DNA from: Psammoneis japonica | Lineage: Eukaryota | Assembly: GCA_008632985.1 (NCBI GenBank) | Contig: QPGO01000001.1 | Span: forward strand, 714,404-778,403 | Direction of reading: 5' to 3' | DNA length: 64,000 bases | Shown here: in pieces, positions 23,521 through 50,410 of the stretch | Position numbering within the stretch: position 1 is the first letter of the stretch | Layout of the letters: each line of letters opens with the position of its first letter | Notes under the pieces: model-generated | Told to the model about the DNA's origin: nothing | The model's database searches: none | What the model saw: the letters and a program-made list of their open reading frames with translations, nothing else | Translations under genes and position numbers: made by a program

Positions 23521-24099
23521 GAATGGAGTCATGGTCTCTCACACAGCTCCTTGCCCAACTGCTTCTGTGATGGCATTGTCGGCAACATTGTGCCATGTGA
23601 AGCAATGATGGTGCTGCAATGAAAACAACTTGGCCCACCCTCATTCTGACCCCCAGCAACCTCTTGCAATCAAAGGTGCGTTGAGATGGGCTCATCTCAT
23701 CCTGCTGTGCTCAACAGAGCAAGTGTGAGAGCTTCCACCCTCTGTCATTCAGTCATGTCAGTCATGACCCCAAGCATGGCATTGAGGAGGGTTGGGCAGG
23801 ACATTTTTGTTGTCTCCACTTCCTCCCACATCATGACAAGAACACTGGTTGACTTGGATTCCAGAGTGTTGGCAGAGCTCCAGTTGAAAAGTCATTTTGT
23901 CTCTGTCTCAAGCACAATTGAAGAGAAATCTTCTAGACATCATCCAGTGTGAAAGCAGCCATGCTGAGGGGTTGGGAGTTGGGCATGCCAGCACTGCTTT
24001 GAGGGTCACTTGGTCACAAGTTTTACCTTCACATGATGCAATGGTGGGTGCTGCCAGCCAGTGCATCAGGGGCAGCACCAATGCCCTTGCATGGGCTCA

Positions 24100-25380
24100 G
24101 GAATGGCCAGTTGTTGCCTTCACTTCTGCTGTGATTGCAGCTTTTGCTTTGAGAATGTTTTCTCATTTGAGGCAAACTTCTTTTGCTCTGGCCATTGCCA
24201 CTGCTTTTGCTGCCTGTCCTCACACACATTTTTTCTTCACGCATCAAGAGAAAAACACCCCAGACATTGTGCGGGCTCTGACAACTGCCCATTGTGGCTG
24301 GTCATCACACAAAAGAGCAAATCAAAATTGCTCTTCTTGTGATGCAACAGCTCATTTTTCTCAACAACTTAATGACAACAAAAGTGACAACCCCCACTGC
24401 CATGGTGTGGCAAACGCCCCCCCAAGCAACCAAAAAATGGCAAATTTTGAATCAACATGAGCTGCTCCAGTTGAAGTGCTGGTTGTGCTTCAAGCAGGTT
24501 CCGAAAGCTGCCAAGGCTGAAAATCAAGTCGACACACACTCCCCAGTCCCAAACCCAACAGGAGCAACAAGACTTCTTCCAGGAAACTGCTGCAGGTTTG
24601 TGGCAGAGTGCATCTGTGAAAACAGCTCATCAGGGAACAGAGCAAGCACGGCAGCTCATGCAAGGAGAGACATCAGGCAACAACAAACACACAAGTTTGT
24701 TTTGTTGGATCAGCTGCGATGGGCCACAATTGTGGCCTGCAGACACCGCTCTCTCCCACTCTCAAAACAGCCACAACTTGCGCGCACATTTTTTTGATCC
24801 AAACACTCAGCAGCACACAGGCTTCAAGCTTCACCAACAAACCCTTTGTCCTCTGGGTCAAATTGCATGAGAAGCAAGCACACACTTCTTTTTTAAGAGA
24901 GTGGAGTGCGTTTGTTTGGAGTTGCGCAACAAGCATGTGGGTGAGTTGGGGCGCGATTGCCACTGAGAAAGTTCGCCCGCCTGACATCGACTCGCGTGCA
25001 GCGCCGCAGCAAGCAGCAACACCATGATGGATGATCATGACACAGGCAATCAAAACAACAACTCACTCTCACGCCACAACGACAGAACGCAACCTCCAGC
25101 AAGAGGCAGAGCAATGGGCTCACATCATTGCTGACATGCTAGACCTGTGACGACTTTGACGGCCGGCTATCCGAACCCTCGTGTCAGTGCTGACGTCAAT
25201 CCCGTTCTCATCGCTCACTCGTGTCACACACCACCATCAATGCACGATGAGAAACATGGCAGAGTCTGTGCAGTACAAGAGCTGTCGTAGATTATATGGT
25301 GCCAACTGCAGGGATCGTGCAAAAGGGTGAATCGACTTCTCATAGTTCTCTCATACTTTTCAGCAACATTCATCATCATT
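24100..25380 (+). repeat. Duplicated upstream block of the propeller family (copy B)
   Basis: Colinear with 11140-12775. Confidence 0.85.
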
Positions 25381-27393
25381 TTGAACCTTTCTAACAACAA
25401 CAAAAAGATTCCTTACAAGTTCAGCGACGACGACGACATGTGCGACAGAGGTGGTGCTAGTCGTGGTAACTTGATGAATGATCGAGACGAAGAAATAAAA
25501 CAAGAGATTGAAGAATTACGCGAATCTACACCTGCACTATCGACGAGGAAGCTGCGTGCAGCACGGAGAAGAGTTTGACTCACCACCATTTTGCTCATCA
25601 CCTTCAACATCAGCAACAACAAGAGGAAGCATTGGAGATGGTTCCAAAAGCTTCTGCAGTCGCTGGAGCTTTTGTCGTCGGTCAAGGAGGACAGGAAGAT
25701 CAACGAGGACGGGATGCTGACAACAGTGCCCTCATGACGGCACCTGAAACGGTACCACCAATACCTCAACAACAGCAGCCTGCCACTGCTGATGGCCCTC
25801 CTGTGCTTGCTGAAGCGCATTTGGACGAACCAAGAGAAGGCATGGAGGATTTTCAGGCACATGTGACTCAAATGCAGCAACAAATCGTGCATCTTCCACA
25901 ATCGGTTCCCACAACACAACAACTAGAGGTCGGTCAGTCTGTGTTAACGGTTTTCAATGGGGAGGAGCACAATGCAGAGTCTGCAGGCGACAACGACGAC
26001 AGCAACGAAGAGATCGGCAGCAAGCGTGGTCGTTGCAAACTTTTGGTTGTTTTGGGGGCTGGAGTGTTGATTGTTGCTGCGATCGTTGGAGCTGTTGTTG
26101 GAGTGACATCAGGAGGCAGTGGAGGAGGAAGTGGCACTCAATCTGCTACAGTGGCTCCCGCTACTCCAGCTCCTTCTCCAATCATTGTGCCTCTAAACGG
26201 ACCATGGAATCCCGTTGGTCAAGTCTTGCACGGCAAAGCGGAAGGTGATAATTTTGGCAGTTCGGTGTCCTTGTCTCGTGATGGCAGTGTCATGGCTGTT
26301 GGAGCAGGTCAATTTCCTCGCAATCCCGGCTATGTTGTTGTGCAGCGATACGATCCAAATACCCAACAATGGAAACAAATCGGCCAAGAATTGGTTGGGC
26401 AAGCCGCCGGTGACAATTTTGGAGGGTCTGTTTCGTTAAATGGCGGCGGCACAGTTCTTGCTGTTGGAGCTGTTCATAATGACAGTGGGGGGGGGGGGGG
26501 GAGATGCTGGTCACGTTCGGGTGTTTGCGTATGACTCTGTATCGGATCGTTGGGTTCAACTCGGTAGTGACATTCTTGGAAACAGATTTGATCAATTCGG
26601 TATTTCTGTGTCGCTCTCGGACGCGGGAGACATTCTTGCAGCAGGCGAACACGGTGACTTTGCTAATTCGGTTCGATTGTTCCAATACAACCATGACACT
26701 TCATCCTGGAAGCAACTCGGTCAGACTCTGACTGGTGAAGCTGCATATGATGGTTTTGGCTATTCCGTTTCCTTGAGTCAATTGGGAACCATTGTTGGCA
26801 TTGGAGCATACAGCAGTTCTCACTCGGGATATTCGGGTGGAAACTATGATGGCCAAGTGTCGGTGTATGAATACAGTTCTGCATTGTCAACATGGGAGCT
26901 GCTGGGTTTTCCAATCAATGGGCAAATTGTTGGTGGTCACTTTGGATGGTCTGTTTCTCTTGATGACAGTGGTTTGATCTTGGCCGTGGGTGCTTATCAA
27001 AGCGAGAGAGCTTTGGTTTATGCATACGATCGTTCTACGTTGAAATGGAATCAACGTGGCCAAACTCTACTCACGCAACAGCTCCATGATGATTTTGGTT
27101 GGTCAGTGTCGTTGAGCGGCAATGGAAACGTCTTGGCTGTTGGAAGTCCTCGTTTGCATGCCGTTAATGGATTGAACAATGCCGGTCAAGTTCTAATCTT
27201 TCAATATGACACCACCACGTCCAAATGGAATCAAGTCGGAGATTCTTTAAACGGTGAGGCTCAAGATGACAAATTCGGAGATTCCGTGTCCTTGTCATCG
27301 GATGGAAGCGTTGTTGGAGTTGGTGCTAGGCAGACCGACGACAATGGCGAGGATTCAGGATCCGCATATGCATTCGCGGTAAAAAACAATTAG
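25381..27393 (+). pseudogene. FG-GAP-like beta-propeller membrane protein, copy 2 (normal composition; frameshifted as assembled)
   Basis: Same architecture as copy 1 with Tyr codons intact; stop TAG at 27391. Frameshift in a G15 run (26487-26501) and a further apparent frameshift near 25535. Could be intact from the ATG at ~25638 if the G run is a sequencing error. Confidence 0.8.
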
Positions 27394-27789
27394 ATCTGCA
27401 GTTCTATATTTCATCCTTTTGCATCAATCATACTGCATTTCAAGCCACTCACAGCGACAAAATGGGACGATTGCAGATGTATTCGTTATCTCCAGAGGTG
27501 TCATGGTTAGGAGCAGTTGTAGATGCTGACGTCTTTTTGGTATTATTGGATGAGGAAGCTTGGTCCATATAAGCTCGACTCGCCATTCATTTCAGGGAAG
27601 AGCCATTGTCTGGAAGCCACTGGAGGACTAGCCTTCTGTGCAAGGCGGCTGCATCAACGGCGCGTCAGCTTGACATTGCCTTCCTCGATCGATTGCGTTC
27701 TCCTCTGGGAATGAATTTTTGTGGCTGTCGTATGTCCTTAGCATGACGTGAATGGAATAACCACCACGAGTAAAATTCAAACCATTCAA

Positions 27790-28073: not shown

Positions 28074-29045
28074 TCACCACTTTCCATTTGGTTTCCAATC
28101 CTTATGAAGAAAGACTGTTTCAACCTGTCCAAAACGTTTGTACGTAACGGGCTCCAGACTAATGAGACGAAATCCAGCGTCTTCAAGTTTGGTGAAAATA
28201 GCGTCCATTGCCTTGGCATTGAGGGTCCCTTTTGCTTTTCCCGGGTGTAGCTCCATGAGTATCTGTCCTACCTTGATAGTGCTCCAGTCGACTGTTTTCA
28301 AAAAGTCCCATTCGTAGCCCTCGACATCCACCTTCAAATAATCGACGTATTGGTGTCCGAGTTCCTTCATGATTGTTGCAAGAGACTTTATTGGAAACTT
28401 GCCCGAGTTTGGATCGTCTTGGCCACCAAATCCGTAATCACCATGATATGCTTCATAAATTCCCTTGCCTTTGCCAGTCTCTCCAATGGTGGGATCAAAG
28501 GTGTGAATCTCACACCCCGGTCCAAGAGTCTGAACGCGCTTCTCGAAGGAAAAATCATTGTTGGATCCCATGGAATACACGATACACGGCTTGTCATAAT
28601 ATGCTTTTCCAACTCCATAATTCACTCTTGCTTTACCACGTTGCTGATGTACCTCTCGTAATCCACACAACCACTTGCCACCATCGTGCTTGATAGCCGC
28701 CGAGGGTTCCTTTTCAAAGTCCCACAAACAAGGCAAAGTGGGAACAAACATGTACCACATGGATTCATCCTTGAGTGCTCCGAATTGTTCATGCTCGGAA
28801 TGCTTTTTTGAGAGCCATGCACGGCGTTCGGCAATTTTCTTGTCGGCGTTTTCCAACAAGGTCGTAATGAGTCCCGAGTCGTCGTCAACGGTAGCGCTTC
28901 TCAAATTTGTGTCGTTTCTTTCATGATTACGGGGCGGCGCAAGCACATTGTATACCACAATCAAAGCAAGCAGAATCCAAAACGCATTCCGTCGAGCACC
29001 CTGTTGGAGCCTGTGGCTGTTTCTGTTTCGTGGCCTGAACGTCAT
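28074..29045 (-). CDS. Methyltransf_22 / METTL24-like SAM-dependent methyltransferase with N-terminal membrane anchor
   Basis: DGGKWLCG, PCIVYSMGSNNDFSFE, CEIHTFDP, LATIMKELGH.YVDYLKVDVEGYEW, GQILMELH; hydrophobic segment AFWILLALIVVYNVLA; intact 323 aa. Confidence 0.92.
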   Translation of the reverse strand: MTFRPRNRNSHRLQQGARRNAFWILLALIVVYNVLAPPRNHERNDTNLRSATVDDDSGLITTLLENADKKIAERRAWLSKKHSEHEQFGALKDESMWYMFVPTLPCLWDFEKEPSAAIKHDGGKWLCGLREVHQQRGKARVNYGVGKAYYDKPCIVYSMGSNNDFSFEKRVQTLGPGCEIHTFDPTIGETGKGKGIYEAYHGDYGFGGQDDPNSGKFPIKSLATIMKELGHQYVDYLKVDVEGYEWDFLKTVDWSTIKVGQILMELHPGKAKGTLNAKAMDAIFTKLEDAGFRLISLEPVTYKRFGQVETVFLHKDWKPNGKW

Positions 29046-31312
29046 GGTGCTTTTGATTCAGAGTTACTTGCAACGCATCAAACAACAATGCGTTGGACGT
29101 TGATGGCGCAAAATCCAAAATGGCGAAACCGTGAATCGCCAAATGAGTCCAAGGTTAAGTTATGGTCGATGGTCGCGCTTTTCAGTCACGCGGTGTACTA
29201 TTTCGTTGAAAAAGCAAGAAGTCCACCGAGCGAAAAACTCTCAACTCAATTGCAGACACAACGTTTTTTGTCAAAGAGCTCGAAATCCACTGCTTCTTAT
29301 TTCTGTCTATGGCACGCCAGAACTCACACTGATTCCATGTGGAATGGATGTCAAGTGGCACAATTGTTTGTGGCACAATCACGCAGAACTTGCACACCAC
29401 TCCAACCACACCTGAAAGCAAAAGTTTCGAGACGTGAGAGCACACGCAAGCTGAACATCACACAACACTCTGCCCCAACCTCTTGCCATTGCACACACTT
29501 TCTGTCAGCATTTGCCATGAGGATGAAGAGCTGCCATGATGGAAGACTCATCCCAGCAGACGAGATGCAAGACTGTGCTCTCTCTTGCTGTCTTTTCTTT
29601 CGCACCTTGCCAGAAACTGGTGCCGGCATGTTCCAGCTCCAGATGATGCACTGAGGCACATGATCCATCATTTGGCCATTCTTGCATTTGGCACAATGAA
29701 GTCTGCTTCAAAATTGATTTTCTCCCAAATCGAAGGGCAAGAAGTGTGCGCGAAACTTGCATTTTTTTGTGCGCACTTGTTGCCTTTCGATTTTCGAAAG
29801 GATCAGATTTGAAGGAGTTTCTTGTGCTGAATGCAATTTTTGGCTTTTTTCATTTTTGGAGCTCACATTTTTGGTCTGCTTCAACTCAACTGACATCTGA
29901 ACATTCCCTGTTTTTCTGCAGACACCAGACAGTCAGTTTCAATGAGCACGCCACAAAATGATGTCCCCTCAAATTCTCATCCGTCTCATCCACCATCCCT
30001 CTCAGTGTGCATTTTTCACTTGAGTCTCCAATGCATCATGGAAAAGAAGAGAAAGCAAACTGGAGTTAGCTGTTGATGCAAGAAGACAGGAACTGGCAAC
30101 AGCAAAAACAAAAAGTGTCATCGTGAGGGATTGGCTGTGGTGACAACATTCACAAGTGCTCTTGCAACAACAAGAAGAAGAACAACTCAAAGAGCAGCTT
30201 TCAGCCTGAGATGAAGTTCTGCTTTTTGTTGCTGAACAGCAACCCTTGCAATGCGACACATGAGGATGTCAAGAAGAAGCAAGATCATCCAGCTCACACA
30301 GAAAGAATGGACTGCAAGGCATGCATTTGGTGAGATCTCCAAAGACATGAAACACAAGGACTTGAGATCCAAGAGACCTGCCTCAGGCATGTCCACAACA
30401 GCTGCACCCTCAATCTTCAAAGCAACAGGCAGTCAAACCAAACTGGCAGCAAGAAAAACAGACAAAGAGCTGGAGCACCAGCACAAAAAGGAGCTGCACA
30501 AGTGTGATGAGGACAAAGTGAGGCAGGGCTCAAAGAAACAAGAGACCTCACTTGCCAAGATCTCAGACAATGCAGATCTCAGACAGTGCAGAGAGTCCAC
30601 CAGGGCAACCTCAGCTGGAGCTTTGCTTTTTTCCCACCTGATCTTTGTGTCTTTGGGTTTGGATGTGGTGAGCATGTCCCTTGCAACACACACAGAAACC
30701 TTCCTTGACCAACTTCAGAGGTGCACTTGTCAGCATGTTCTTGTCTGGTTGCAGCCACTCCAAACAAGCCTGTTCCACCAGCCACTTGGACACTGCATCC
30801 AACTGGTGTCATCATGGGTCATGCCAAAGTGCTGTTGGATTGAGACCTTGTGCACACCCACAAGTGAAGATGTTTTCCCCAAGTGCATTTCCACCAAGGC
30901 TGACGCAGGTGGTTAAACAGACAATTTGAAAAGGACACATTCATGCAAGACACCACTGATGTTGTGCATTGTTGAGGGTGGCATCTTCCAAGTCCTTGCT
31001 TTGCTTGGAACCGAATTTTTGTTTTAGTCAGGGGGAGCTCAGAAACATCTGCATGGCCACAGAGGCTCAAAAATTGGCATGGAGACACATGCAGGTGGAC
31101 ATGTCTTAGAGTGTTCTGACAGTTTGGTTTGCTCTGCCTGCAACTCAACTTCAAGTTCCATGGTTTCACATGCTTGAGCAGCACTGCCTTCTCTCATTGA
31201 AGCTTTGGCGCATGAATTTTTGCCAGTTCCTCCTTCAGCAGATTTTTGCTCAACATGATGGCCAATGTTTTTAAAAATGACTTGATGCCATTTTTAATTC
31301 TGCAGAGTGCAC

Positions 31313-31419: not shown

Positions 31420-33405
31420 CTTGCACAGGCATCACAGCATCGCATCAATTTTTTTCACACAAGCAGTGCTGCTGCTGTGCCTGTCTCAACTCATGCAAAA
31501 AAAAAACAATCGATGACACATTGCGCTGGCATGGTGTCAGTTTCTTGGCAGAAAATCCTCCAAAAACATGGTTGTTGTCATTGTTGCTGTTGACTCATGT
31601 CGTTGTTTTTGAATTTTTGTTGCTTTGTTGGATTGCAGTGTTTTGGGTCATGCATCGCATGTGCATTGTGCGTGCTGAGGCATGATTTTTTAGCATGCAC
31701 ACCTGAGGTGAACAAAGCACTCATGCCACCCAAGTGCTTTGCCCAAGTTTTGGGCATGGTTTGCAGACTCTGCCCCCCTCAAACACCAAAAGGTCACTCA
31801 TGATGGTGGTCACAACATTCATGGAGGACTCAACACTTCTGACGAGCACGAGGCTGATGGCAAACCAGTCCAAGAATTGCTCGCCAATGCATTTGGGCTT
31901 GATGTGGAGGCGGAGCAGCAATTTTGCAGTGAGTTGGAATGAAGCAAAAACAGTCATCTGATGGATGGTCCTCAGCACAAGCCGTGTGCCTCAACTGATG
32001 GCAAGATGCCAACGAGGCACCTGCACGAAGCTTTCTTGGAGTTCAACAAGCAGTTTGGAGAGGGAAACAAAAAGGAACACAAACAACGCCATTTAATGAC
32101 AAAGGCGTCAACTTGCCTTCTGTGCTTCTCATGGCTTCTGGTGCAAGCAAGGCCTGGTTGCCAGATGAGGGCATTGGAAATGTGTGGTTTGTGCTTTTTC
32201 CAGAGCTTTCTGCTGCTGGAGGGTCGCCGGTGCTGTTCCCAACATGCGTGCCTGGGCCAGAGCATGGGGCCGTCGATGGCATGTTTGCGGACACCTTTGG
32301 GGCATGGCGATGTCAATGTCCTGCATTGCAAACTTGTTTTTTGTCCGGGCAAAGCTCAGGTGGCTGTGGACATCATCAACTGGGCAAACGCCTGTTCCCA
32401 AGGAAACAGTTTAGAGACCGGCAAGGGCAAGATGTTGACAAAGGCAACAAGGGTCTTCCCTGCTCGCGTTTCCACTGGGAGGTGGAACACAAGAGTGGGG
32501 ACCCCATTGAGCTTTGTCAACGTGGAATGGCATGCATGAACTGCAATCACACATGCTTGTTTCTTGGGGCCAAAGCACATGCACCGGAGGAAAGTGGAGA
32601 ATTCAAATCGGCAAAATTGTGCTCTGGGGGAAGGTTGCACATGACAGCAACAAAGTGACAGTGGTCAAAGCTGTCAGTTTTGGAACCAAAGATCTCTCTG
32701 ATGATCACAAGAATGAGTTCTCTGTTCACCACCGTGATGGACTTGTCGGGGTTCAGCCTGATCAATGGCGCTGCCTGCCGGTGGAGGGGGATCCCCCCAA
32801 AAGGTCCCAGCAACAACTCCCACCGAGTGGATGCTCATGACTCCATTTCAAGGATTTCTGTGCAAGGTCACCACCAAGAAGCAAAACGATGGAACATGCC
32901 CACACCTTGCCAACGCACTGGAGGAGGGTGAGGTGGGGGATCTGATGGATCAACCTTCGAACAATGTTGTTGCAATTTGCAGGGACACTCTTTGCTGATG
33001 ATGATGATTGAAAGACAGGGTTGAATCATGTGCGGAGTGCATCCACTCCTGGTCTGTGTCTGTCAGCTAGACAACAATCATGGGACCAATGTCACTCTGG
33101 GTGACATCGTGTTCTTGGGAAGGATGACCCAGTTGCAAGGTTCCATGTGTGTCAGCAGTTTACATTGGGATCCATGTTGTTGAATCAGGAACTAAGAGGA
33201 AGAAGCACTTGACTGTCTCATGCTGGCTCCTGACTCCAGACTGCATGGAAAGCTTGGAATCATCCCTGGCAAACATCTTTGGTGCCTTGACAAACTCTGG
33301 AGCCTCTCCAATGTAGCCATCATCCACCTCCAATCTCTTTTTAGCTTCAAGGAACTGCCACACAGCATGTCAAAAGACAGCAAGATCATTGTACATGCCA
33401 CAAGG

Positions 33406-33681
33406 TGACAGGATTTGAACAGGATTTAGGTGCGCGCGAAATGTCGCGCGCTGTTTAGTTTGCCGCGCACAGTTTTGTGTGCTTTAGTTCTGCGCGTTCG
33501 CGCGCGATGTAGTTTGCTTTCGAGCCACAAGGCTCACAAGAACAATGACAGCAGCCCGATTGTGCCAACTTACACGTCTTTCGGCTCCTGCAACGGTCTC
33601 TGAGCGGAGACTCATCTGCTGTTTAGACAGCAGCAAGGAGTTGTTGTTTGAATTCTTGCCATTTGCCTTCAACCTCTGTCA
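33406..33681 (+). repeat. 5' LTR (276 bp)
   Basis: Direct repeat of 36541-36822; TG...CA termini. Confidence 0.95.
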
Positions 33682-34635
33682 GATTGACAGTCTTGCTCAT
33701 TGTCAACCCATTGAGCAACCGCCATCGTCGTCGTTGATTTACCGATGACGCCACTTCAATTCTGCGTGGACCTCCGTACATGTTCTACATGCATCGGCAA
33801 GTCTGTGCGCGTTCAATGCCAGGCATCGGCAGAAATTTAACGTCGCCGTCAAGTCTCCTTGCCGCTGTGTGTCTGGATTGATTGTGCCACCTTTGATCGC
33901 TGAAGACACACATTCAACGGTCACACCCAAGTCCATCCTTGATCCTCATCCATTGACACACCCATTCATCGGTTGACGGTCAAGAACCCCATGTGTTCAA
34001 GGATCTTCGTCGCTGAAGACACATGTGCACACATGTCTTCACGGCCAAGAACTTGCACCCACTCTTCGGACTGCGGTTTTGCCACCACTCTGCAAGCACA
34101 CCGAGTCCATTGCACCTGATCTGCCCCGGACTGCTGGTGCTCTGCAGTTCTGCTAGGTCCACGAGGACGACTGTGAGAGCAAGCAGCCGTGATTGCAGCC
34201 TGCGTTGGGGCGAGGGTGTTTTCCCGCGTTTGTTCGTTTGTCCACAGCGCCTGACGCCTGCGTCAACTGGCCAGCCTGATCGGGAAATCCAACCGACATA
34301 AAACAAGAACGGTTCGGGGGTCTTGTCCACCTCTGGTCAGCTTGCCTGCAGGGGTTTACAACCCGCCACTCCGCTCGCAAGCAACCCAAAGCGCCGCCAG
34401 CTGCGGGTTCGGACGTGCCGGCACAACTCTACGGACCGGATGGGAAGTTTAGCACTTGACAACGAACGGGATGGCACAGCCCGGCGACTTCTGATTTTAA
34501 GACAGTCCAAGATTTCAAGTCAAGTCTGGCTCAAGTCAAGTCTTTTTCAAGCCAAGTTCCAAGTCAAAACTCTGAGTCAAGATCGCGCTCTAGATTGGTT
34601 CCTGTCTTTTGGTTTCTACTGCACCATCCTCCGTC

Positions 34636-36474
34636 ATGGTTCTCATGCGACAGCAACAAACCGAAAGCTTCAAACACGTTCTAGGCACTGTGCTCAATCA
34701 AGATGATGACAGCCCTCTTCGTTCTGCCCTGTCCATCAATGGGATTGAATCGTGCGAGGAATTGTTCACGTTCTTACCCACCCAAATTGACGCCCTCACT
34801 TACAGAGATGGCGCCAATGTAGTGCCTTTGCCACAGACCCACAGAAACCTCCTAGCAGCTTTGATCAGCTTCTACTTTGTCAAAGTTTGCAACGGTGATG
34901 ATGTGACCAATGAACCCCAGTTGCTCACACCCGAGGAATTTCGCAACTACCGCCTTGGTCCGGACCACTTGACCTCTCTAGCCACTGGCGCAGCACCCTC
35001 CACACCTGTGCCGAGTCCCTTGCCATCCAAACCAGGTGAACCCAGTGCCATTTTGACACCAGCCTTGCACTGTGCCGCCACTCAGGTGTCCCCCAGAAGT
35101 GGTGTCAGTCGCGCCCCGCATGTCTTGACCAACCCGCCTGCAAGCAACCTCGGCCCAGTGCAGGATTGCAGCCCTTGCACAGGCCCGCACTTCAAGACCA
35201 GTTGGGACACTCCACCCATGGCTTCCAAAGCTGCAGTCTTTGCACCCCGCAAACCACGTGCTGCCAACCTCCACGTGTCGACCGCTGTCACCCTTCACAG
35301 TCTTCGTTTGGGAAGTGATGGAGATGACAACTTGCTTCTCGTATCTCCTGATGGGGAGCCTCCTTTTCCCGTCATTGAATCTGTTCACAACAGCTTAACC
35401 AGTTCATCAGATGGGGAGTTCAGGACATCCAAGCAGCTTCGTTGTCTTCGGATCCTCCAAGCATCGCACCATGAGACCAGGCCTCCTGACCGGATGCTCC
35501 AAGTCTCGCACCTCGAGACCAGGCCTCCTGATTGGATGCCTCAAGTCTCGTACCTCGAGACCAGGCCTCCTGATTGGATGCCCCAAGTCTCGCACCTCGA
35601 GACCAGGTCTCCTGATTGGATGTCCCAAGTCTCGCACCTCGAGACCAGGCCTCCTGATTGGATGCCTCAAGTCTCGTGCCTCGAGACTGGGCCTCCTGAT
35701 TGGATGCCCCAAGTGTCGTACATCGAGACTGGGCCTCCTGATCGGATGCCCCAAGTCTCGTGCCTTGAGACCAGGCCTCCCAACTGGACTCTCCACGTCT
35801 CATGCCTCAAGACCGGGCCCCCCAATTGGATCCTCCACGTCTCATGCCTCAAGACTCGGCCTCCGGATTGGATCCCTCAAGTCTTGCGCCACGAGACTCG
35901 GCCTCCTGATTGGATCCCCCAAGTCTCGCACCTCAAGACTTGGCCTCCTGATTGGATCCCCGAAGACTCGTGTCACAAGACTGGCAAGTCCTTTTGGATC
36001 CCAGAAGTCTTGCAGCACGGGACTGGTTGCCCCAACCAGACATCTGCGGCCTTGCACCACAAGATGTCTTGCTCCAATCTGATCCCCGAAGGCTTGCACC
36101 TTGAGACTCGTTTCTCCAATTGGATCAATCTATCAGGAGATGCAGCTGAGCTTGCAATCGGATTGGTGGAACACAAGACCACCGCTTGTGCCTTTGAACT
36201 CATGCTTGCTCTGTTCCCCGAGTCGTGCAAACGCCATGCCGCCTGCAATGTTGCCCCGCTGTTCAACATTGTCAACCAGACCAAGCTTTACTCCTTCCAT
36301 TGCAAGTGCGGATGTGGAATCCCACAAGATCCCAAGTGTGCCTTGAGCTTTGAAAAGTGCAACGGCATCTGCAATTGGGGAGACGCAGCTCATCTCAAGA
36401 TGACCCACTTGGAGAATGCAACGTTGCTCTTGGATCTTGATCCTTTCTTGTCTCCTCATGTTTTGGTGCTTTGA
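34636..36474 (+). CDS. Internally deleted Copia gag/pol remnant fused through a 14-aa repeat
   Basis: FKHVLGTVLNQDDDSPLRSALSINGI...IDALTY resembles diatom Copia gag starts. CKCGCGIPQDPKCALSFEKCNG..WGDAAHLKM resembles the YKYG.EIP....A...D..NG...W.DA...EM motif preceding RT. No integrase or RT core. Confidence 0.65.
   Translation: MVLMRQQQTESFKHVLGTVLNQDDDSPLRSALSINGIESCEELFTFLPTQIDALTYRDGANVVPLPQTHRNLLAALISFYFVKVCNGDDVTNEPQLLTPEEFRNYRLGPDHLTSLATGAAPSTPVPSPLPSKPGEPSAILTPALHCAATQVSPRSGVSRAPHVLTNPPASNLGPVQDCSPCTGPHFKTSWDTPPMASKAAVFAPRKPRAANLHVSTAVTLHSLRLGSDGDDNLLLVSPDGEPPFPVIESVHNSLTSSSDGEFRTSKQLRCLRILQASHHETRPPDRMLQVSHLETRPPDWMPQVSYLETRPPDWMPQVSHLETRSPDWMSQVSHLETRPPDWMPQVSCLETGPPDWMPQVSYIETGPPDRMPQVSCLETRPPNWTLHVSCLKTGPPNWILHVSCLKTRPPDWIPQVLRHETRPPDWIPQVSHLKTWPPDWIPEDSCHKTGKSFWIPEVLQHGTGCPNQTSAALHHKMSCSNLIPEGLHLETRFSNWINLSGDAAELAIGLVEHKTTACAFELMLALFPESCKRHAACNVAPLFNIVNQTKLYSFHCKCGCGIPQDPKCALSFEKCNGICNWGDAAHLKMTHLENATLLLDLDPFLSPHVLVL
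35473..36125 (+). repeat. 42-bp minisatellite, ~12 good plus ~3-4 degenerate units (ETRPPDWMPQVSxL)
   Basis: Unit GAGACCAGGCCTCCTGATTGGATGCCTCAAGTCTCG(TAC/CAC/TGC)CTC, head-to-tail with no spacers. Confidence 0.95.
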
Positions 36475-36540
36475 CTCCAAAGTTCTTTGGTCAATCCGAA
36501 GTCGAATCTGTTTCTGTGACTCCTCAAGCAAACTGGGGAG

Positions 36541-36822
36541 TGACAGGATTTGAACAGGATTCAGGTGCGCGCGAAATGTCGCGCGCTGTTTAGTTTGCCG
36601 CGCACAGTTTTGTGTGCTTTAGTTCTGCGCGTTCGCACGCGATGTAGTTTGCTTTCGAGCCACAAGGCTCACAAGAATAATGACAGTAGCCCGATCACAC
36701 CGACTTGCACGTCTTTCTCTTTCGGCTCCTGCAATGGTCTCTGAGCGGAGACTCATCTGCTGTTTAGACAGCAGCAAGGAGTTGTTGTTTGAATTCTTGC
36801 CATTTGCCTTCAATTTCTGTCA
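36541..36822 (+). repeat. 3' LTR (282 bp)
   Basis: Direct repeat of 33406-33681, followed by TSD CAAGG. Confidence 0.95.
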
Positions 36823-37231
36823 CAAGGGAAGGGGCCCTCAATCCATGTGATGTCTCCATGCTTGATAAAAACAACAACAAGACAGCAGAAGCCAATGACA
36901 AATGAGCCATGTGCAGGGGTTGTGAGTCCCAAAAACAGGGTTTGAGTTGAAGCTCGCGTGTGTGCAAAGGCGCCGCAATTTGAAATTGACCGGCACTGGG
37001 GTCCAACATTCCACATTGAGGTGCAACAAGAATGTCATGTTCTTGTTCATGCCTGGCAAGTGTTGCATGATTAAGATTGATTGGAGTCAGTCTGTAAAGC
37101 CACACCACTTTGTCTCCGGTTGTCCTTCGTGGGATTGTCCTCTTTCTTCCAAGGATGCTGACACCTGCCTTGATTGAGCAGCAACGTCTTTGTGACAAAG
37201 CCTTGGCACCAACAAAGTGCTTGCATGTGAC

Positions 37232-38560
37232 TCACTGGTGTTCAACAACAGCAAACAACAGTGCAGAAACAGCGGTCATCATTGCCACAGCCTTGCAACA
37301 GCATGCAGCTGCACTGGTTGGCTCTGCCGTTGGCATGTTTGTCAACTCTGGCATTCCATCTTGATTTGATGGGGCTGGAGATGGCATGCTTGTGTCCACC
37401 ATGGTCAAAGAAGCATCGCTGCTTGTGCCATCACATCCACCAGTCAGCAGCAAATCTCCATCAGACAAAAAAGGTGGGTTCACCTGTTGGATCTGACATT
37501 CGATGATGGATTGGTTTGAAGATGGACAATGTCTCCTGCTGGAAGAAAAGTGGGAGGATTGCCAGCATTGTCTGTCAAAATGTTGTTGGACATCAAATTG
37601 TTGTTTGCAGATGCTTCTCCAGTGATTGGTGGTTCTTCATCACAGTCTGGAAGAGGGGACAGAGAGACACCAGTGCAGTGACCAGCAACCACAATGCCAG
37701 CAGCACTGTTGTTTCAAACTTCATTGTTGTGAATGACATGGTCACTGACTCCAACCAAAAAGACTCCAAAGCCTGGAATGAGGCCTGCTTGAAAGGTTCC
37801 AGCTGGTGCCAAATTGACCATGTCATTGTTGCAGACAGCATTGCCCTCAACACAACATTCTTTCATGTCACCCTGGGGTGGATTTCCAGCCACATTTGCA
37901 TGATGCAATCCTGCTCCAACAGTGTTGTCATGGATGCTGTTGTTTTGACAACACACTTGATGAGAAATGGTTGTCTCTAAGACCGTTGGTGCCAGTGTGA
38001 GCTCATTGTTGACAACTGTCACATTTTCCGAACCAGCCACCTGCAAAGCTGAGTCAAGTGATCCACTGGAAAAGCTCAGTTCTGCTGTTCCATTTTTCAA
38101 AAATGTTGGATGCAGTCCATTGTTGAGATTGTCAATGGACGCACATGAAGAAATTATGAAACCATCCACCCATCTTGTTTGAGTGCCATTGCAAGGAAAG
38201 TTTTCTGCAGAAATGTTGACAACAGTGAAAGTCACCAAGTCTGCGGCAATGCACATTCACTGCAGGCATGGCCACAGCCCAGTGGAGTCATGCAGAGTCC
38301 AGTTTCTTGCTGTCCAATTGCAAGCAGACAAACACTGCCTTGTCCAATCAAGGTGAGATCATCCGCAGTGACAAAAAGACCACAAAGAGTGTTTGTTGAT
38401 TCTGGGCATGTTCCTTCCTTGACAAGAATTGTGTCACTAGAAGAGGCAGCATCCACAGCTGCCTGGATGGACTGACCATGAGATGCTCAAACTTCTTCTG
38501 CCATTGCAACAGAAAAAAGCCCAAAACCATGGCCCAAAATGCTGTCACTCTCATTGCTGT
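37232..38560 (-). pseudogene. Right-handed parallel beta-helix (pectin lyase-like) secreted protein, hypermutated
   Basis: GQSIQAAVDAASSSDTILVKEGTCPE (typically ...GTY.E), SENVTVVNNEL, NNSIHDNTVG, VEGNAVCNND; P/S/T stalk and hydrophobic C-terminus. Several frameshifts and TGA stops; no Tyr left. Confidence 0.75.
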
Positions 38561-39449
38561 GAACCAATCCACCAACAGCTGTGCCAAAAATGGAGTGGTT
38601 GTGCTTGACCAACTTTTTGTGGTTTGACCATGCTTCTGTGCTGTTGTGCATCAATTGCCAAATGCATCAAGAGACAAAACTGTGGTTGCACTTTTCAGTC
38701 ATGCAAACAGAGAAGGCAAACCAACGGCCTCCAATTCCCATTGGATCCGATGGCAACATTTTGCTCCAAGCTGACCCACTGTCACAGCAACAAGGCTGTG
38801 AAAGGCATTTCATTGCAAGACCAGAAGAGCAGAAGGTTGCTTCCTGGTGTTTTGCAAGTGCACTTTGACTTTGATGCCTGGGGTGATGAAAACATGGGTG
38901 AGGGACAGATTTCTCAGCCATGTCATCTTTGGATTGTCACAGCTTCCATTCTGCCAAACTTTGATGCTGCCCTTCAACCCCCCAACACCAACAAGCCTGC
39001 CCAAGCCTGTGACACTGAAAATGAGCTGGGAAGACAACCAAGTTCCCACTGCAAGAAACGCTTCCCAGCCAAAAGGACATTTAAACCTTGAGGTTGTTGT
39101 CACAGCTTCCTGAGTGTGCACCCCACATTTGAAAATGAGCACCAATGGCCCAACACTGCTCTTGATGGTGAGTGCACTTTTGACAATGCTGTCTCACACA
39201 GCCACTTTGTCAAAAACAACTGCCCTCAACTCTGTGGTGCCCAAATTGTGCTTGATGACAATCTGGGCACTCTTCTTCAAAGGACCAAAACAAAACCCAA
39301 AGTCCAATTTTAAGTGCTGCCATGCTTCCACCCTGCAACTCCGGCAACAAGCTAACCCACACTCCCAGTGCACTGGGTGCAGCAGGAGCATGTGTCAATT
39401 AGCCAAGATCGGCATCACCCTCAGGTGATGCTGCGCTGAAGTGACTTGC

Positions 39450-42400
39450 AATGTTTTGCTTGCCTCGAACTGCCAGACGTCGGGCTTTGCGGATGCTCGA
39501 CCCAAACATTGGCTTGACCATTGCCAACCAGTTCCGCATTCAGTGAGCAGAATGAGTGAGATGTTCCTTGACAGAATCCAACAATTGAGCTCGGTCATGA
39601 GCTGGGTGCTCATCCACCCTGGAGCAGATTTCTTTGACCTCCGCCTCTGCGTCTCTACACTGCAATGACTGTCCAGATTCGGAATCATGTCCATGCACTG
39701 CATCATTGTGATTGTCCCAGAGTTCCCACCATTGAGACCACACACAACTGCCAATTGTAGCCACCCAGTCCATTTGGCGGTCTTTGTCAGACAAGGATTG
39801 GCACAAGCCCAAGGAGAGCAAAAGAGATGTTTGGGCCTCGTTCCACAAAACAGAAAACTGTCCATTGAACATTTGTTGCCATCCAATCTCAAGCTGAGAT
39901 CTGAACACCTCCGTGACACTGTGATGGACTTTGTCAGAGCAAAGAATGTCTGCACAAAACCAACCCTCTAAAGTGCATGACAAGAGATCCCGAATTGATG
40001 GAGAGGTGTGAATGTCATCACACTTCTTCCGCAGGCCTTGAAGGAAAGTGCGCCGCCATGGTTCATTGTGCTCGCATTGCAAGATGTGGTCTCTGTCTTC
40101 AAGGGGATGTTGGCAGTGCATGCAACAGTCCGGGCATGTGGGATTGCATCTGTGGACAATTTCATTCGTTGGAAGCAAGTCTTGGACAAGTTTCACAGTG
40201 CCAACCTTGCGTCGGATGTTGCGGGCCATCAATTTGGAGTGAACTGCCCAGTTGATTGAGTTGTGCACCATGTCGGACCACTTGACTTGTTTTTCATGTG
40301 TGTGATGAGGGTGGGACTGGAAGCTTCATGTCGAAGAACAGACTTGAACTTGGAGGTCACTGACGACCCTTGAACTGTTAACACAGCAGAACAGTGAGGC
40401 ATGCGGGGGGCGAGCAAGGTGTCTCCAGCACATTTGCCCTGGAATGAGCCAGCCAACTTGTCGGCGCAGACATTCAACTTTGCTTGGAAGGTGAGGGACT
40501 CAAAAGGGCTGTTGTCATCTTGGCAACCTTCAATCCAATGCATGTCAACAAAGGTGCTTGTGGAGCATTCTGAAACCTGAGCATCCAAGCTCTGCAAGGA
40601 CTCAAAAATTTCATGCATGATGTCCCAATCCAGTGCCAATGCATTGGCAACATGGTGTCGACGGTGACAATCGCATTGTCTGTTGATGGTGTCTGCGTCA
40701 TCAGGAGGAGGTGGCACAGACTTGAAATTTGCAATGTTGCGGACCAGAGAAGAATTGTCACAAAACACTTCCGTGCCTTGGGCCAAGTTGCCATTGCAAA
40801 ATTCTGCCAGGCGAAGTAGAAACTGCAAGACAGACAAAAATCCACAGGCTTCAGCACGACATGACAAAGGGCAAAAACCAAATGCTGGACCTGCACACTT
40901 GACCAGTGTCACTTCATTGATCACCAACACCCATCTGAAGGTGCCCTGAAAATGCAACACCAAACCATCACTTCCCATTGTTGCCCAAAAGATCTCCAGG
41001 GATGCCGCCATTTCAAATGTCGAAGCATGCATGGCAAGCTCATGGAATGAAGCAGCCTCCCATTTTGGCAAAGACTGCAACCAGGCTCAAAAGTCACTGT
41101 GGATGGGAATGGTTGGTGGGACCTCAACCAAAGAAAACATCAACTGAAGCATCCATCGGCCGTCCCCAGTCACATCAACCAATGCAGGAGATGCCAGTGG
41201 AGAAATGTCCGGGACAGTTTCCAGCTGGTGCAAGGACACAGCACGATCATCCTGGACAGGAAAAACCTGAGATCCGGCATCCGATCGAACACAAAAAAAC
41301 TCTTCTGCAGGCTCATGGTGGGTGTTGTGGCACGTGTGCATCTCGGATGTGGGAACTGTCCACTGACCCAAAGGGTGGTGCAAGGTCAAAGCATTTTTGG
41401 TGCAAAGCAGGGCCACAGCACAACGCCACTGTTTCCAGGCATGGGCGGACGGGCAAGCTTGTTCCATGGGATTCAATGATGATGTGGAGCTCATCAGAGA
41501 TCGTTGTCCGTTCAACATAAATTCATGCAAGTGAATGCCATCGGGAAGGGTGACGTCCAAAACAGTGAGCACATGAAGGAACAGCCGGCAGCAATTCACC
41601 CACCGGATTTCTTTGTCACAAGAAAGCATTCGACTCCAACACCACGTCCACAGTGCATTGGTCATTGTCACATTGCACAGGTGGGACACCAGTGAAATCA
41701 AGCTCAAAGGATGAATTCACCCTGGCAAGGAAAGCTTGCATTGACACAAGCCATTTTGACTCTGAGTGTGGGAGTTTGGTGTGAGCATCCAACAAAAAGC
41801 ATGTGCCCGCACCGATCTGACATTGCACCCATGACACCGCAATCTGGGAAAGTGTGTGGGGTTGACCAGAACCTCGCCAATGGTGCAGAAACTGCAAACA
41901 TTGTGCTGCTCCTTGTTCAACGTCCAGCAACCAAAATCCTCCACCTCCTGAGGTGCGTGGTCCGCAGAGCACGTCTCGTTTCACATTCCGGTTGTAACCA
42001 CACTTGGCAAAGATGGTCCGCATTGCTTTTTGTTGCATCTGCAGCAACTCTTTGGGGAGAAAATGGGTGTTTGGAAGAATGTGCATCATCGAGAAAAGAT
42101 GGCATGCAAAACAGTGTGTCCATGGCTCGTGTCGATCTAACGGGCATGACCAAAGAAACAAGGAAATGTTGTCGCTCTTCATTTTAAGTGCTTTGCATTG
42201 AGTCCGCTGGGTTCCTGCAGGTGATTTGAAATGGCCCAAGGTCTCATGGGGAGAATGTGCAGAAAGTTGGGCACTGGACCAAGTGGCAGATCCATCAGCG
42301 GAATGCATTTCGATGTCGATGTCCTCGTTGTAGGCATGAAGGTGAGGCTCACCGTCTTCGGTGAACAGCCATTCAACAGCATGAAATGAACCCTCGGGAA

Positions 42401-42850
42401 GCTCCAGCTCGTGTCCTGCTGAGTTCAATGGATCACACCACAACTGGTCATCCTCCTGCATCCAAAGCACTGGTTCCATTGCGTCCGGTTGGGGATCGGC
42501 ACAGAAATCGTTGACTTGATTTGACGTGTCATCAATGTGCCCTCTTGTGAACATCCGCAGAGACACCGTACGATCAGGAGATTCAAAGCAAGCACCGTGA
42601 GCCTTGCTGTTGAACAGCCAAAACAAGCTGTTGCAAATCTGGCTCCAATCTTCTTCAAAAGACCAATGTGCTCATCATTGTTCAAAGGCTTTTCAATGTG
42701 CCCATGGCCCCTGTTCTTGTGCAATGATGAAGCAGATGTGCTGAAGCAGCGCTGCAAACACAGACATGCTGGATGGCATTGGCGCCTCTTGTTTGAAGTG
42801 GACAAAGTTGGGTGGATGAGTTGAAGTGGCTTCAAAGTGCAGCATGGCAG
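39450..42850 (-). mobile_element. 5'-truncated non-LTR retrotransposon with RT, RNase H and C-terminal zinc knuckle (Ambal-like)
   Basis: RT: GHIDD, W..PLNSAGHELELPEGSF, ETLGHFKSPAG. RNase H: SDG...GTFRW...GPAFG..PLSCRAEACG...FCDN...DWD...HWIEGCQD...KLNVCADKLA. Knuckle: CMHCQHPLEDRDHILQC. Confidence 0.85.
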
Positions 42851-44579
42851 CATTCCTGCATTGGCTCAAATGGCTCCTGTTAAATTTCTGTCATGATTGT
42901 AGAGAGCAAGCCATGTTTTGTTCCAGGCAATGAAGATGAGGGGAGGTCATTGCCAACCTTGCATTTCCAGACCTTTGCCAGTGCAGTGACAGTCAGGTGA
43001 CAAAACTTGTTGCTGAAATCTTTCATGACCTTGCACCTGGCAGTTGTCTGAAAAACCTTGCCAAGGCTCACTTGGCTAAACTGGGATGACATGGCTCCAT
43101 CTCACAGACCTCATGATGGCTCACCTTTCAAAACCCAGATCATGGGTGTTTGTCCTTGGTCAGGGTGCACCACACCCAGGTGCATTGCTGAACTCATGGG
43201 CTTTCTTCATTTTCTTGTTTGTAAAGAGACTTGGAGCTGCCAAGGCCCTTGTTGGTGCAACAAACTTGGCAAAAACATTGGGGCACCCCACCTTGTTGTG
43301 AAAGCCATGGAGCCCAAGTTTCCATGTGTGGGTGCTGCTGGGGATGCAAAAAATCTCTCAGATCAGGCTGGCTTTCTGAACAATGTGTTGCACCCAAACA
43401 GCCAACCCACCAAGAGCTCAAAGACCACAGTGCAGTGGTGGCAAAACTTTAACTGCCACCAGAAGGGCCAATGTTTCTGCTGATGCCTGCTTTCCTGACA
43501 TCAACCCAGAAGCTGCTCTTGATGGGTGGTTTGCCACAATGATGAGAGACTGCTGCAAATGCAACTGAGACATTGTCCAAGTTTCTCAAGACAGAGGGAA
43601 AGCCCAAGTGACAGCAACAGCTGGCTGACAGCAGAGAAGCTTGTTGGAGCTCAAGCAAGTGTGGCAGAAGCAGCATCAGCCACACCCACAACAACAAAAA
43701 CTCAAGGTGTGACTCAAAGCAAGCTCCAGCTTTTGAAAATGCCGCTGGGGGGCAGAGCATCACCAAGATGTGCATTCCAGAGAAACCAGTGGCCCAGAAA
43801 ACAGCGACAAGAGGCCAAGGCCAGAAGCACCTGTACTTGTGCCCCTGCTTTGCCAGCCCCAGCTGCAACAAGTGCACAAAGTTGCCTCTTCCCAGCCCCC
43901 CCCTGCATGCTGGTGTGCAGCTCACCAGCAAAGGCTGTGGCTGAGAAAAAGGACAACAAGACTGTGTGTGGCAGTGTCAAATGCAGAGAAAGATTTGCAA
44001 AAAGATGGCTCTGCAACAACTCAGGGACATTCTGCAAGGAGAAAATGAGGAACTTTCCTGCCCAAAACTTTTCATTTGTGCTTGTTCACACATGGGGTGA
44101 TTTGATGCATTGAGAGTGAAAGACAAAAATGGTTTGTGACTTGTGCAAAACAGCTTTGGGTCTTTGGCATTTTTTGTTGTCTTTCTTTCTTAACATGTGC
44201 ATCATTGCCAAAAACACTGCAAATGATCAAGTGTTGGTTGTTGCCATTGTTGTCATTTGGAAATGTCAACCATTGTTTCCTGAGTGGCACTCTTTTGCAC
44301 AAGCTCCCACTGGCAACCTCCTGCGTGTGTTTCTACACAAGTTCTCGCACTGATGTCGCCCTTCTCAGGCGGTGTTGATTTGGCTCCAACAAGCCCATTC
44401 TGCCCACGTTCACCAATGGCACATCCTTGTTGCAGCATGATGAGCAAAGTTCATCAGTGGAAAATGACGAGTGTCCTGGCCTTTTGGTTTGTAAGCTGGT
44501 TGCCATTTCTCATCATTTTTGGTTGTCTCAGAAAATTTTCTACACAGGTTCTGGTGCAAATTCTGCATGGATCTGCAGA

Positions 44580-45062
44580 TGCTGCTGACGATCTACATGT
44601 CACTTCCCCGGCCTGCTTTTGTCCTTGCGAATCGGTTCTCAACCCTGCTTCTTTTCCTTGCCGTGCAATCAAGTCCTTCACTCTTTGTGGTGCTGGTGCT
44701 GCTTCTGTTGCGGCCCTTTTCAGCAAGAATGTTGGTTGTCCTTCGGAGTCATTTGATTGTCATTGATTTGCCACTCCCATCGGTCTTTCTGCGCAAGATC
44801 TGGCATTGTTTCTGCGTGTCACCTCTGACTGTCTACGTGTCACTTCTCCAGACTACCTTCATCCCTGCCAATCAGTCTTCAACATCTCTTCTTTTCTCTG
44901 CCGTGCAATCAAGTGCTGCACTCTTTGTGGTGAATGTGCTGCTTCTTTTGCGGCCCTTTTCAGCAAGAACACAAGTTGTCCTGTTGTGCCATTTGATGGT
45001 CTTCGGTTTGCTGCTCTCAGCAGCTTTTCCATGCAAGACTCAGAGTTGTTTCTACATGTCAA
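44580..45062. repeat. Diverged tandem duplication, 240-bp period
   Basis: ccgtgcaatcaagt...ctctttgtggtg...gtgctgcttct..tgcggcccttttcagcaagaa occurs at 44661 and 44901. Confidence 0.85.
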
Positions 45063-49788: not shown

Positions 49789-49939
49789 CTTTGTTCTTTG
49801 AGCTTGGTGGCGGAATAAGGAGAGAAACAATCTCGTTCTTGATAATAATGCGTGGGTACGATCGAAATAGGGTTGGCCAAGTGAAGAAACAAGAAGCGCC
49901 TGAAATCTTGATGTATACAGGGAATACAAAGACTGGTTG

Positions 49940-50410
49940 TTATTGCTGTGTTGTTGTTGTTGTTGTTGTTTTGCGAAAGTGGAAAAATTATGACAAGGAT
50001 GAGAAGTCGATTCAGGTGTTTTCGTGATGCTCAGTCATGCCGTGACACCTCGTATGTAGATCATTTATCACAGCTCTCGTAGGAAAAAAATGGCGGGAAG
50101 TAGGGTTCTCATCGCCCAAGTGACACCCATCGTGTTTGCCATACGGTCGATCTGTCGTAGAATCTACACAGAGTCTGGTATGTTTCTCATCGTGAATGAA
50201 GAAGAGGTGCTGTGACACACGAGTGCGATGAGAATGGCACTGACGGGTAGGTTCGGATAGCCTCTTGTCGTTCAAAGGCGTCATGGCATCAGCAATGAAG
50301 TGAGTCCATTGCTCTGCCTCTTGTTGGAGGTTGCGTTCTCGCTGTGGAGTGAGAGTTGTTGTGATTGTCATGGTGTTGATGCGCTGCAAACATGTTGTGG
50401 TGTTGGGCGG
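49940..50410 (-). promoter_or_regulatory. Conserved upstream/promoter block of the propeller family (copy C)
   Basis: Reverse complement aligns with ~12300-12760 and ~25040-25345 and lies directly upstream of the intact copy 3. Promoter function is inferred from position only. Confidence 0.6.

Follow-up and report, generated by a model that had tools for sequence, protein, structure and literature searches.

The two long terminal repeats (LTRs) of a retrotransposon are identical at the time of insertion. Which mutational processes, then, have acted on a pair of LTRs in Psammoneis japonica that now differ by transitions alone, nearly all of them at a few dinucleotides? The pair belongs to an element at positions 33406-36822 of a 64,000-nt stretch of DNA (contig QPGO01000001.1 of assembly GCA_008632985.1, forward-strand positions 714,404 to 778,403), which is referred to here as the window and whose numbering is used throughout. 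The evidence makes it probable that the LTRs were altered in the chromosome, after a single insertion, by decay of TpA to CpA or TpG together with decay of CpG.

Differences between the two LTRs of a single insertion

The element is a 3.4-kb non-autonomous LTR retrotransposon present as one insertion, the repeats and ends of which were read base by base. Its two terminal repeats lie in the same orientation and are 95.3% identical at aligned bases; both start with TG, end with CA and carry the short inverted ends TGACAG...CTGTCA. The target-site duplication on both flanks is CAAGG, 5 bp long and within the 4-6 bp range characteristic of such elements. The matching CAAGG copies and the TG..CA ends indicate one insertion without later exchange between elements. 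A direct-repeat search recovered the two copies as the segment pairs 33405-33582/36540-36717 and 33577-33681/36718-36822. Both LTRs have observed-to-expected ratios (o/e) of about 0.36 for TA and about 1.1 for CG (approximately 0.37 and 1.13 in the 5' LTR).

Over 276 aligned positions the LTRs display 13 substitutions, all 13 of them transitions, and one 6-bp indel, a tandem duplication of TCTTTC in the 3' LTR. Four substitutions set TA against CA or TG (5'/3' LTR: T/C at 33427, C/T at 33543, C/T at 33552 and A/G at 33572), and three set CG against CA or TG (G/A at 33502, A/G at 33567 and C/T at 33594). Four more form a block at 33561-33564 that reads TGTG in the 5' LTR and CACA in the 3' LTR, and the remaining two, CC/TT at 33673-33674, lie outside pyrimidine-purine (YR) steps. 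Eleven of the 13 substitutions are thereby located inside YR steps, against 144 of the 276 LTR positions (52%). The excess has a binomial p of 0.017, or 0.045 when TGTG/CACA is counted as two events, and a Fisher p of 0.021; divergence amounts to 7.6% at YR positions, 1.5% (2/132) elsewhere and 4.7% overall. Each LTR contains six TpAs, of which four are common to both (three TTAG and one GTAG) and two are private, and both LTRs carry differences on either strand.

The preliminary description of this stretch had listed these differences from reading the letters, and every item of that list is present in the alignment, the indel and CC/TT included. Its view that nearly all differences are TA or CG transitions, and that each LTR keeps TpAs the other lacks, agrees with the counts given above. 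It had further held that the changes arose after integration and not by RNA editing, which is supported, as far as these data can test it, by the intact CAAGG duplication and by the presence of differences on both strands of both LTRs. Taken alone, the pair is moderately significant; the strength of the case comes from the family and the window.

The rates at which the steps changed bear on the origin of the TGTG/CACA block. Outside the block, TA changed in 4 of 16 opportunities (8/20 with a TATA block included) and CG in 3 of 40. Given the rates elsewhere in the LTR, a TATA ancestor of the block is about 120 times likelier than CGCG. We infer that the block was TATA, with both of its TA steps flanked by a purine and a pyrimidine (RTAY) and lost in both LTRs. 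Differences between A:T and G:C at TpA would then comprise the four of the TA against CA/TG type and four more from the block, all of them unpolarised within the pair.

Family copies, flanking bases and the direction of change

The direction of change can be sought in other copies of the element. Contigs of four runs from one sample (X1-X4) were aligned to 32400-35350 at no less than 80% likeness, giving 5,239 contigs. Summed depth, which is not a copy number, reaches 245,000-657,000 on the LTR against 52 on the unique flank, and the family is clearly highly repeated. Transitions account for 126 of the 132 variant places in X1. Forty of these 132 are listed individually, and the dinucleotide counts taken row by row refer to those 40. 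At 24 of them this copy has CA or TG where other copies have TA (with a TA share of 10-100%), and at one the relation is reversed; at seven this copy has CA or TG where others have CG, with two reversed. The listed places also include three other transitions and three transversions.

Runs X2-X4 have zero depth on the flank and cover the repeat only, so that their assemblies represent the exact variant of greatest abundance. A 620-nt contig of these runs, spanning 33687-34303, has TA at no fewer than 20 places where this copy has CA (11) or TG (9), and among the rows listed there is no place of the opposite direction; two further dinucleotides read CA against TG. The TA o/e of this variant is about 0.71 or more, counting the listed rows only, against 0.18 in this copy. 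Relative to the abundant variant, the internal TpA differences of this copy are thus losses. All X4 contigs together show 53 places with C or G here and T or A there, and 16 of the opposite kind. Difference counts per listed contig are compatible with both polarities.

A few places in the LTRs can be compared with the family directly. Position 33567 is G in 96% of the X1 family depth and in every contig from the small runs, and the change there is CpG to CpA in the 5' LTR. At 33462 both LTRs have TG, and TA makes up 62% of the family depth. Two contigs, record 10 of X2 and record 26 of X4, read through the site of the 6-bp duplication without a gap, and no insertion is listed there; the absence of the duplication from these crossing contigs identifies it as derived, private to the 3' LTR. 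CpG decay underlies at least 3 of the 13 LTR differences: CpG is ancestral at 33567, and the window has a CG o/e of 0.55 with an excess of CpA and TpG.

The family also contains rearranged members. Depth over the last approximately 100 nt of the LTR (33588-33686) is roughly double that of the remaining LTR, and in this part several contigs begin after unrelated sequence; some contigs skip 413-694 nt 3' of the 5' LTR (33700-34396). These observations suggest related LTR variants and internally deleted copies. Two patterns in the IUPAC nucleotide code built from the LTR yielded no matches, the longer in metagenome and viral contigs and the shorter in metagenome and genome contigs. No further copy of the element was found in the window by blastn or by comparison in a purine/pyrimidine alphabet, and the short matches given by the latter are due to chance.

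Survival of TpA depends on the flanking bases. Contexts were counted with strands pooled in three non-genic stretches (1-4000, 16801-24600 and 36901-47300) and in the element over 33406-35350. Among non-genic YR steps with a pyrimidine before and a purine after, TpA makes up 78 of 2566, TTAA alone contributing 44; among those with a purine before and a pyrimidine after, it makes up 4 of 2672, and ATAT, ATAC and GTAT are all at zero. CpG survival varies only about twofold with flanking context. The TpAs lost from this copy comprise 11 RTAY, 9 of mixed context and 1 YTAR, and those kept comprise 2 RTAY, 13 mixed and 12 YTAR (Fisher p of 2e-4 for RTAY against YTAR). The lost TpAs of the element obey the context rule of the window, which supports loss as the direction of change.

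These patterns support a source lineage with normal TA content, the copies of which would have been losing TpA after insertion. Loss of TpA is favoured over gain because a gain in the manner of fungal repeat-induced point mutation (RIP) would make the most homogeneous and most abundant variant the most mutated one, and because gain would contradict the TA-free old DNA around the element. By extension, the TpA-type differences inside the LTRs themselves also appear to be losses, as far as the letters of the family copies and the window can tell.

The expected proportion of losses can be approximated from composition. The ratio (CA+TG)/TA is 41-66 in the most depleted DNA, which, if this DNA is near equilibrium, implies that loss per TpA is 41-66 times faster than gain per CA or TG. 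Of the TA-type differences in a young LTR, we would then expect about nine in ten, and not all, to be losses. Close to compositional equilibrium a share of the TA/CA differences should be gains, and a family consensus carrying CA or TG is not a clean test of direction for a few sites.

Compartments, known systems and rival explanations

The depletion of TpA extends far beyond the element. The window as a whole has o/e values of 0.195 for TA, 0.55 for CG, 1.58 for CA and 1.63 for TG at a GC content near 48%, and TpA constitutes 1.3% of its dinucleotides. In the non-genic DNA the TpA o/e is about 0.05, and bins of 4 kb reach as low as 0.05 for TA and 0.12 for CG. Across 1-kb windows the rho values of TA and CG correlate positively (Spearman +0.81), and each correlates negatively with CA/TG (-0.88 and -0.87). 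By the thresholds of a 2026 preprint on Bigelowiella natans (Mettrop et al., bioRxiv 10.64898/2026.01.13.699255), 55 of the 64 1-kb windows have a rho-TA of 0.43 or less, and 40 of the 64 also pass the CpA+TpG threshold. The windows passing both form five runs of 3 to 10 windows, extending up to 10 kb.

The depleted DNA has bounded neighbours. The region 6001-10500, which holds an ankyrin open reading frame (ORF) and a G-alpha exon, has a TA o/e of 0.44-0.91 and a CG o/e of 0.8-1.0, and its part at 8001-9000, free of long ORFs, shares this near-normal TA content. A sharp border is located near 10.5 kb: the next three 500-nt bins fall to 0.16, 0.06 and 0.04 for TA and to 0.59, 0.19 and 0.12 for CG. 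ORFs supported by Pfam have CG near 1 at all codon junctions and TA at 0.31-0.47. Counted over all six frames of the window, the stop codons TAA and TAG reach about 0.2 of their expected number, and 77 stop-to-stop frames of 150 amino acids or more are found in the 64 kb, most of them without a Pfam family. Because TAA and TAG are scarce and most long frames lack a Pfam family, long ORFs are weak evidence of genes here, and gene finders will meet many spurious ones in such DNA.

The probable sequence of events is as follows. An element of the highly repeated family would have inserted once, and its LTRs would then have mutated in chromosomal DNA. One process would change A:T to G:C at TpA, giving CpA or TpG on either strand, fastest at R-TA-Y and slowest at Y-TA-R. 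The other would change CpG to TpG or CpA, most simply through deamination of methylated cytosine. Both would act in bounded compartments made up of repeats and other non-genic DNA, sparing the neighbouring region of housekeeping genes. The leading guess for the enzyme is a DNA adenine deaminase as proposed for B. natans; alternatively, a miscoding modification of thymine or adenine at RTAY might be responsible.

The closest known system is that of B. natans. According to the preprint (10.64898/2026.01.13.699255), mutation-accumulation lines acquired 231 mutations in two integrated viral regions, of which 230 are A to G or T to C and all of these 230 fall on TpA; the genome contains 124 clusters poor in TpA and rich in CpA+TpG, and an ADAT2-like deaminase is proposed as the enzyme. 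The likeness to the window extends to the change of TpA to CpA or TpG on either strand, to foreign or mobile DNA as the target, and to TpA-poor, CpA+TpG-rich clusters, the thresholds for which are passed by the 40 windows mentioned above; the preprint also reports reverse-transcriptase domains as enriched among TpA-poor coding sequences.

The two cases also differ. Evidence is comparative here and comes from de novo mutations there. The recorder used here is the LTR pair of a repeated retrotransposon, and the words 'LTR' and 'retrotransposon' do not occur in the main text of the preprint. CpG decay co-varies with TpA loss in the window, whereas the hypermutable regions of B. natans have almost no GC to AT change. 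The RTAY/YTAR rule holds here, whereas the Results and Discussion sections there speak of the TpA dinucleotide only. TpA amounts to 1.3% of dinucleotides in the window and to 3.3% in the giant-virus region of B. natans. What is added beyond B. natans is a post-insertion proof of principle, a flanking-base rule and the coupling with CpG decay. Our literature search returned no TpA-directed A:T to G:C decay of transposons besides that preprint. Removal of TpA by A:T to G:C change opposes the usual GC to AT bias, and an LTR pair with an intact target duplication reveals, with no experiment needed, that the process works on the chromosome once the element is in place. The rule of fast RTAY and slow YTAR is a constraint on any candidate enzyme.

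Fungal RIP (PMC2621366, PMC3318451) resembles the present case as a transition-only, dinucleotide-specific decay of repeats that creates compositional compartments. It differs in its product: RIP turns CpA into TpA and leaves AT-rich, stop-rich DNA, whereas here TpA vanishes, the stop codons TAA and TAG are scarce and the GC content remains near 48%. Composition excludes RIP itself, the TA o/e being 0.195 over the window and 0.18-0.37 within the element. A related explanation would have all the differences arise by cytosine deamination at CpG and CpA in methylated repeats, the TA-type differences being gains of TpA as under RIP. It draws on the fact that any transition difference can be read as C to T in one copy, on the sole directly polarised site, 33567, which is CpG to CpA, and on the CpG depletion of the window. 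This explanation is unlikely: in TA content (about 0.05 in non-genic DNA) and in GC content the window is the reverse of what RIP produces, TA is more frequent in the abundant family variant than in this copy (20 places against 0 among the rows listed), and the scarcity of TAA and TAG is at odds with a process that creates stop codons. The TGTG/CACA block would moreover take four CpG hits in four opportunities, against 3/40 elsewhere in the LTR.

Ectopic gene conversion from another family copy would make the pair no clean clock, especially at the cluster 33561-33572, where 6 of the 13 differences lie inside 12 nt; the many copies of the family are also polymorphic at such sites. The cluster coincides, on the other hand, with hypermutable steps (two RTAY, one CpG and a further TpA), the target duplication has been preserved, and any variants brought in would have arisen by the same processes; conversion is in our estimation improbable. 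Editing of the RNA or of single-stranded cDNA of the element before integration is a very remote explanation. Both LTRs are copied from one template, and RNA edits would be common to them. The changes considered here differ between the LTRs, fall on both strands in both of them with no one-strand bias, and split internally into 11 CA and 9 TG among the listed rows; the flank, which is no part of the element, is equally depleted (TA o/e of 0.11 over 32400-33405). Such editing has precedents in the preference of ADAR-type enzymes for U before the edited A, mentioned in the B. natans preprint (10.64898/2026.01.13.699255), and in APOBEC editing of LTR elements (PMC4866542). Mis-assembly of repeats or base-calling errors at modified TpA might be suspected in a highly repeated family, the LTRs of which could be collapsed or chimeric, the more so as no library type is recorded for the runs. 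A 1,739-nt contig of depth 52 matches 32400-33432 (1,033 nt), from the unique flank into the 5' LTR, with 0 differences, so that the TA-poor flank is not a base-calling artefact; the target duplications match, and the depletion extends to the unique flanks. An artefact is accordingly a highly improbable source of the pattern.

Several observations speak against decay of TpA and CpG in the chromosome as the source of the LTR differences, or limit what the data say for it. The YR excess of the pair alone is modest (p of about 0.02-0.045), CC/TT (2 of 13) fits neither the TpA nor the CpG process, and two single loose-end contigs read TT at 33673-33674, hinting that TT is older. Six differences within 12 nt may represent a conversion tract. 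Only 1 of the 13 LTR differences is polarised directly, and that one is of the CpG type. The context trend within the LTRs (RTAY 4/4, mixed 3/8, YTAR 1/8; p of 0.006) needs the assumed TATA ancestor, and with this assumption removed the comparison becomes 3/8 against 1/8. Internal polarity presupposes that the contig of the low-coverage runs represents the young or ancestral form, and at several of those internal places TA makes up only 10-35% of the X1 depth. The four runs come from one sample, possibly the source of the window itself, and are not independent of the assembly. A singleton test on the five FG-GAP paralogues of the window gave TA to CA at 0 of 10 site-lineages, the paralogues being too diverged and having few TA sites.

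A broader form of the chromosomal decay explanation is conceivable, if on balance doubtful. It would be a compartment-targeted 'reverse RIP', in which a DNA-level editor of the palindromic R-T-A-Y turns TpA into CpA or TpG in repeats and foreign DNA, alongside CpG decay. If this were true, every self-complementary YR step in silenced DNA would drain into CA or TG, and TAA and TAG would be erased, so that junk DNA would keep long open frames in each of its six phases. With the LTR pairs of this family as a ready clock, one could measure how fast the process runs, what sequence rule it obeys and where its boundaries lie, and B. natans would be one case of a wider eukaryotic defence.

The decay of YR steps affects the dating of insertions. 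The Kimura two-parameter distance (K2P) between the LTRs is 0.0495 at all sites and 0.0154 at non-YR sites, the latter value resting on two adjacent differences. Without masking of YR steps, LTR ages in such DNA would here come out about three times too high, which accords with the suggestion made at the outset that LTR divergence overestimates ages in this genome. Inflation of LTR ages by CpG hypermutability has already been discussed (PMC6407205), and the CpG decay of methylated transposons described there is similar in that hypermutable dinucleotides inflate the divergence between LTRs. The present case differs from that account by a second dinucleotide, TpA, which decays apparently faster (4/16 or 8/20, against 3/40 for CpG). 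The TpA component is a new element in the inflation of LTR ages.

Coding capacity of the element and other features of the window

The absence of a reverse transcriptase from the 2.86-kb interior makes the element non-autonomous (Table 1). An autonomous element was considered and ruled out: the sole long ORF matches 0 Pfam families, and there is no gag-pol, reverse transcriptase or integrase. The interior contains no other long ORF with a match. No primer-binding site of the TGG type was found 3' of 33681, where hairpin folding has a z of -2.1. The purine-rich tract adjoining the 3' LTR also precedes the LTR in a contig of another family copy. The element resembles the non-autonomous elements known as TRIM (terminal-repeat retrotransposons in miniature) and LARD (large retrotransposon derivatives) in having LTRs, a target duplication and no pol gene, and its 3.4 kb presumably fall between these two size classes. 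It differs from them in holding a 612-aa ORF with an N-terminal domain, which has 153 unannotated relatives, and a tandem array of 14-aa units.

Table 1. Positions of the element's parts and of other features in the 64-kb window
Feature	Position	Strand	Remarks
Target-site duplication, left copy (CAAGG)	33401..33405	+	Identical to 36823-36827
5' LTR, 276 nt, TGACAG...CTGTCA	33406..33681	+	Repeat search and pairwise alignment
Cluster of 6 of the 13 LTR differences (TGTG/CACA, A/G, A/G)	33561..33572	+
Internal region, 2.86 kb, TA o/e 0.18	33682..36540	+	Without reverse transcriptase or integrase
612-aa ORF	34636..36474	+	Only long ORF in the interior
Conserved N-terminal helical domain, about aa 1-118 (predicted)	34636..34989	+	Relatives match the first ~130 residues
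Tandem array, period 42 nt (14 aa), 12.4 copies	35450..35970	+	Weaker copies over 35366-36121
Purine-rich tract, candidate polypurine tract	36530..36540	+	Adjoins the 3' LTR; read from the sequence
3' LTR, 282 nt, with private 6-bp duplication	36541..36822	+	Repeat search and alignment
Target-site duplication, right copy (CAAGG)	36823..36827	+	Read from the sequence
Five paralogues with FG-GAP_2 repeats, 73-80% identical	15500-16760, 26180-27445, 47380-50034, 52800-54060, 63000-64000
Retroelement RNase H remnant (RT_RNaseH_2, E 1.4e-7)	19364-20164	-	TA o/e about 0.06
Old duplicate pairs	13091-13285/20717-20913, 13351-13479/22625-22756, 31092-31256/52410-52571, 2167-2300/2281-2406

The 612-aa ORF has no Pfam family and, by a word-indexed search, no relative near its own length; against the PDB it gave no sequence match below E 0.29 and none by profile. 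Its composition of 1.0% Tyr, 4.7% His and 3.6% Cys deviates from the 3.2%, 2.5% and 1.4% seen in the Pfam-supported ORFs of the window. The N-terminal domain is matched by 153 representative proteins at an E of 0.001 or less, which are 25-40% identical to it, mostly at their own N-terminus. These relatives align well, and a helical structure is predicted for the domain with confidence (predicted local distance difference test, pLDDT, of 87.3). Comparison of the model with PDB folds gave nothing significant, only weak rows resembling the SAM domain at E above 1, and a Pfam scan assigned a family to 0 of 35 genuine relatives. By sequence likeness, the domain is a member of an unannotated protein family. 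A 36th scanned protein, P0006, was set aside; it is a bacterial repeat protein with eight short matching stretches and is probably spurious.

One codon of the 14-aa repeat unit encodes His, Tyr, Cys or Arg across the units (CAC, TAC, TGC and CGC). This varying codon is a small-scale display of YR-step decay with ambiguous polarity: CA, TG, TA and CG all occur at the same step, and polarisation of the 42-nt array by majority is ambiguous. Comparison of Tyr in the relatives with His or Cys here covers three Tyr-rich columns only and is underpowered, with one Tyr kept, one replaced by Phe and one by His.

Self-comparison of the window in the purine/pyrimidine alphabet revealed old duplicates missed by ordinary blastn. 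Transitions and transversions number 35:14, 24:6, 44:9, 20:6, 98:54, 42:22, 24:4 and 126:67 in eight non-LTR pairs and 116:81 in a ninth, in alignments the scoring scheme of which favours transitions. The old non-coding pairs are rich in double differences of CA against TG; the pair 31092/52410, for instance, has 8 CA/CA, 8 TG/TG and 10 CA/TG. Such double differences are to be expected if a TA or CG once common to both duplicates decayed in each independently, to CA or to TG.

The RNase H remnant has no reverse-transcriptase match beside it and is too decayed for a polarity test. Rfam and tRNA scans of the window sequence gave no match. The FG-GAP_2 paralogues are moderately TA-depleted and are not CpG-depleted, and one of them also has a Laminin_G_3 domain. 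The window further contains a 77-base run of N at 11624-11700 and, on the reverse strand at 28074-29057, an ORF with domains of the Methyltransf_22 and FkbM types.

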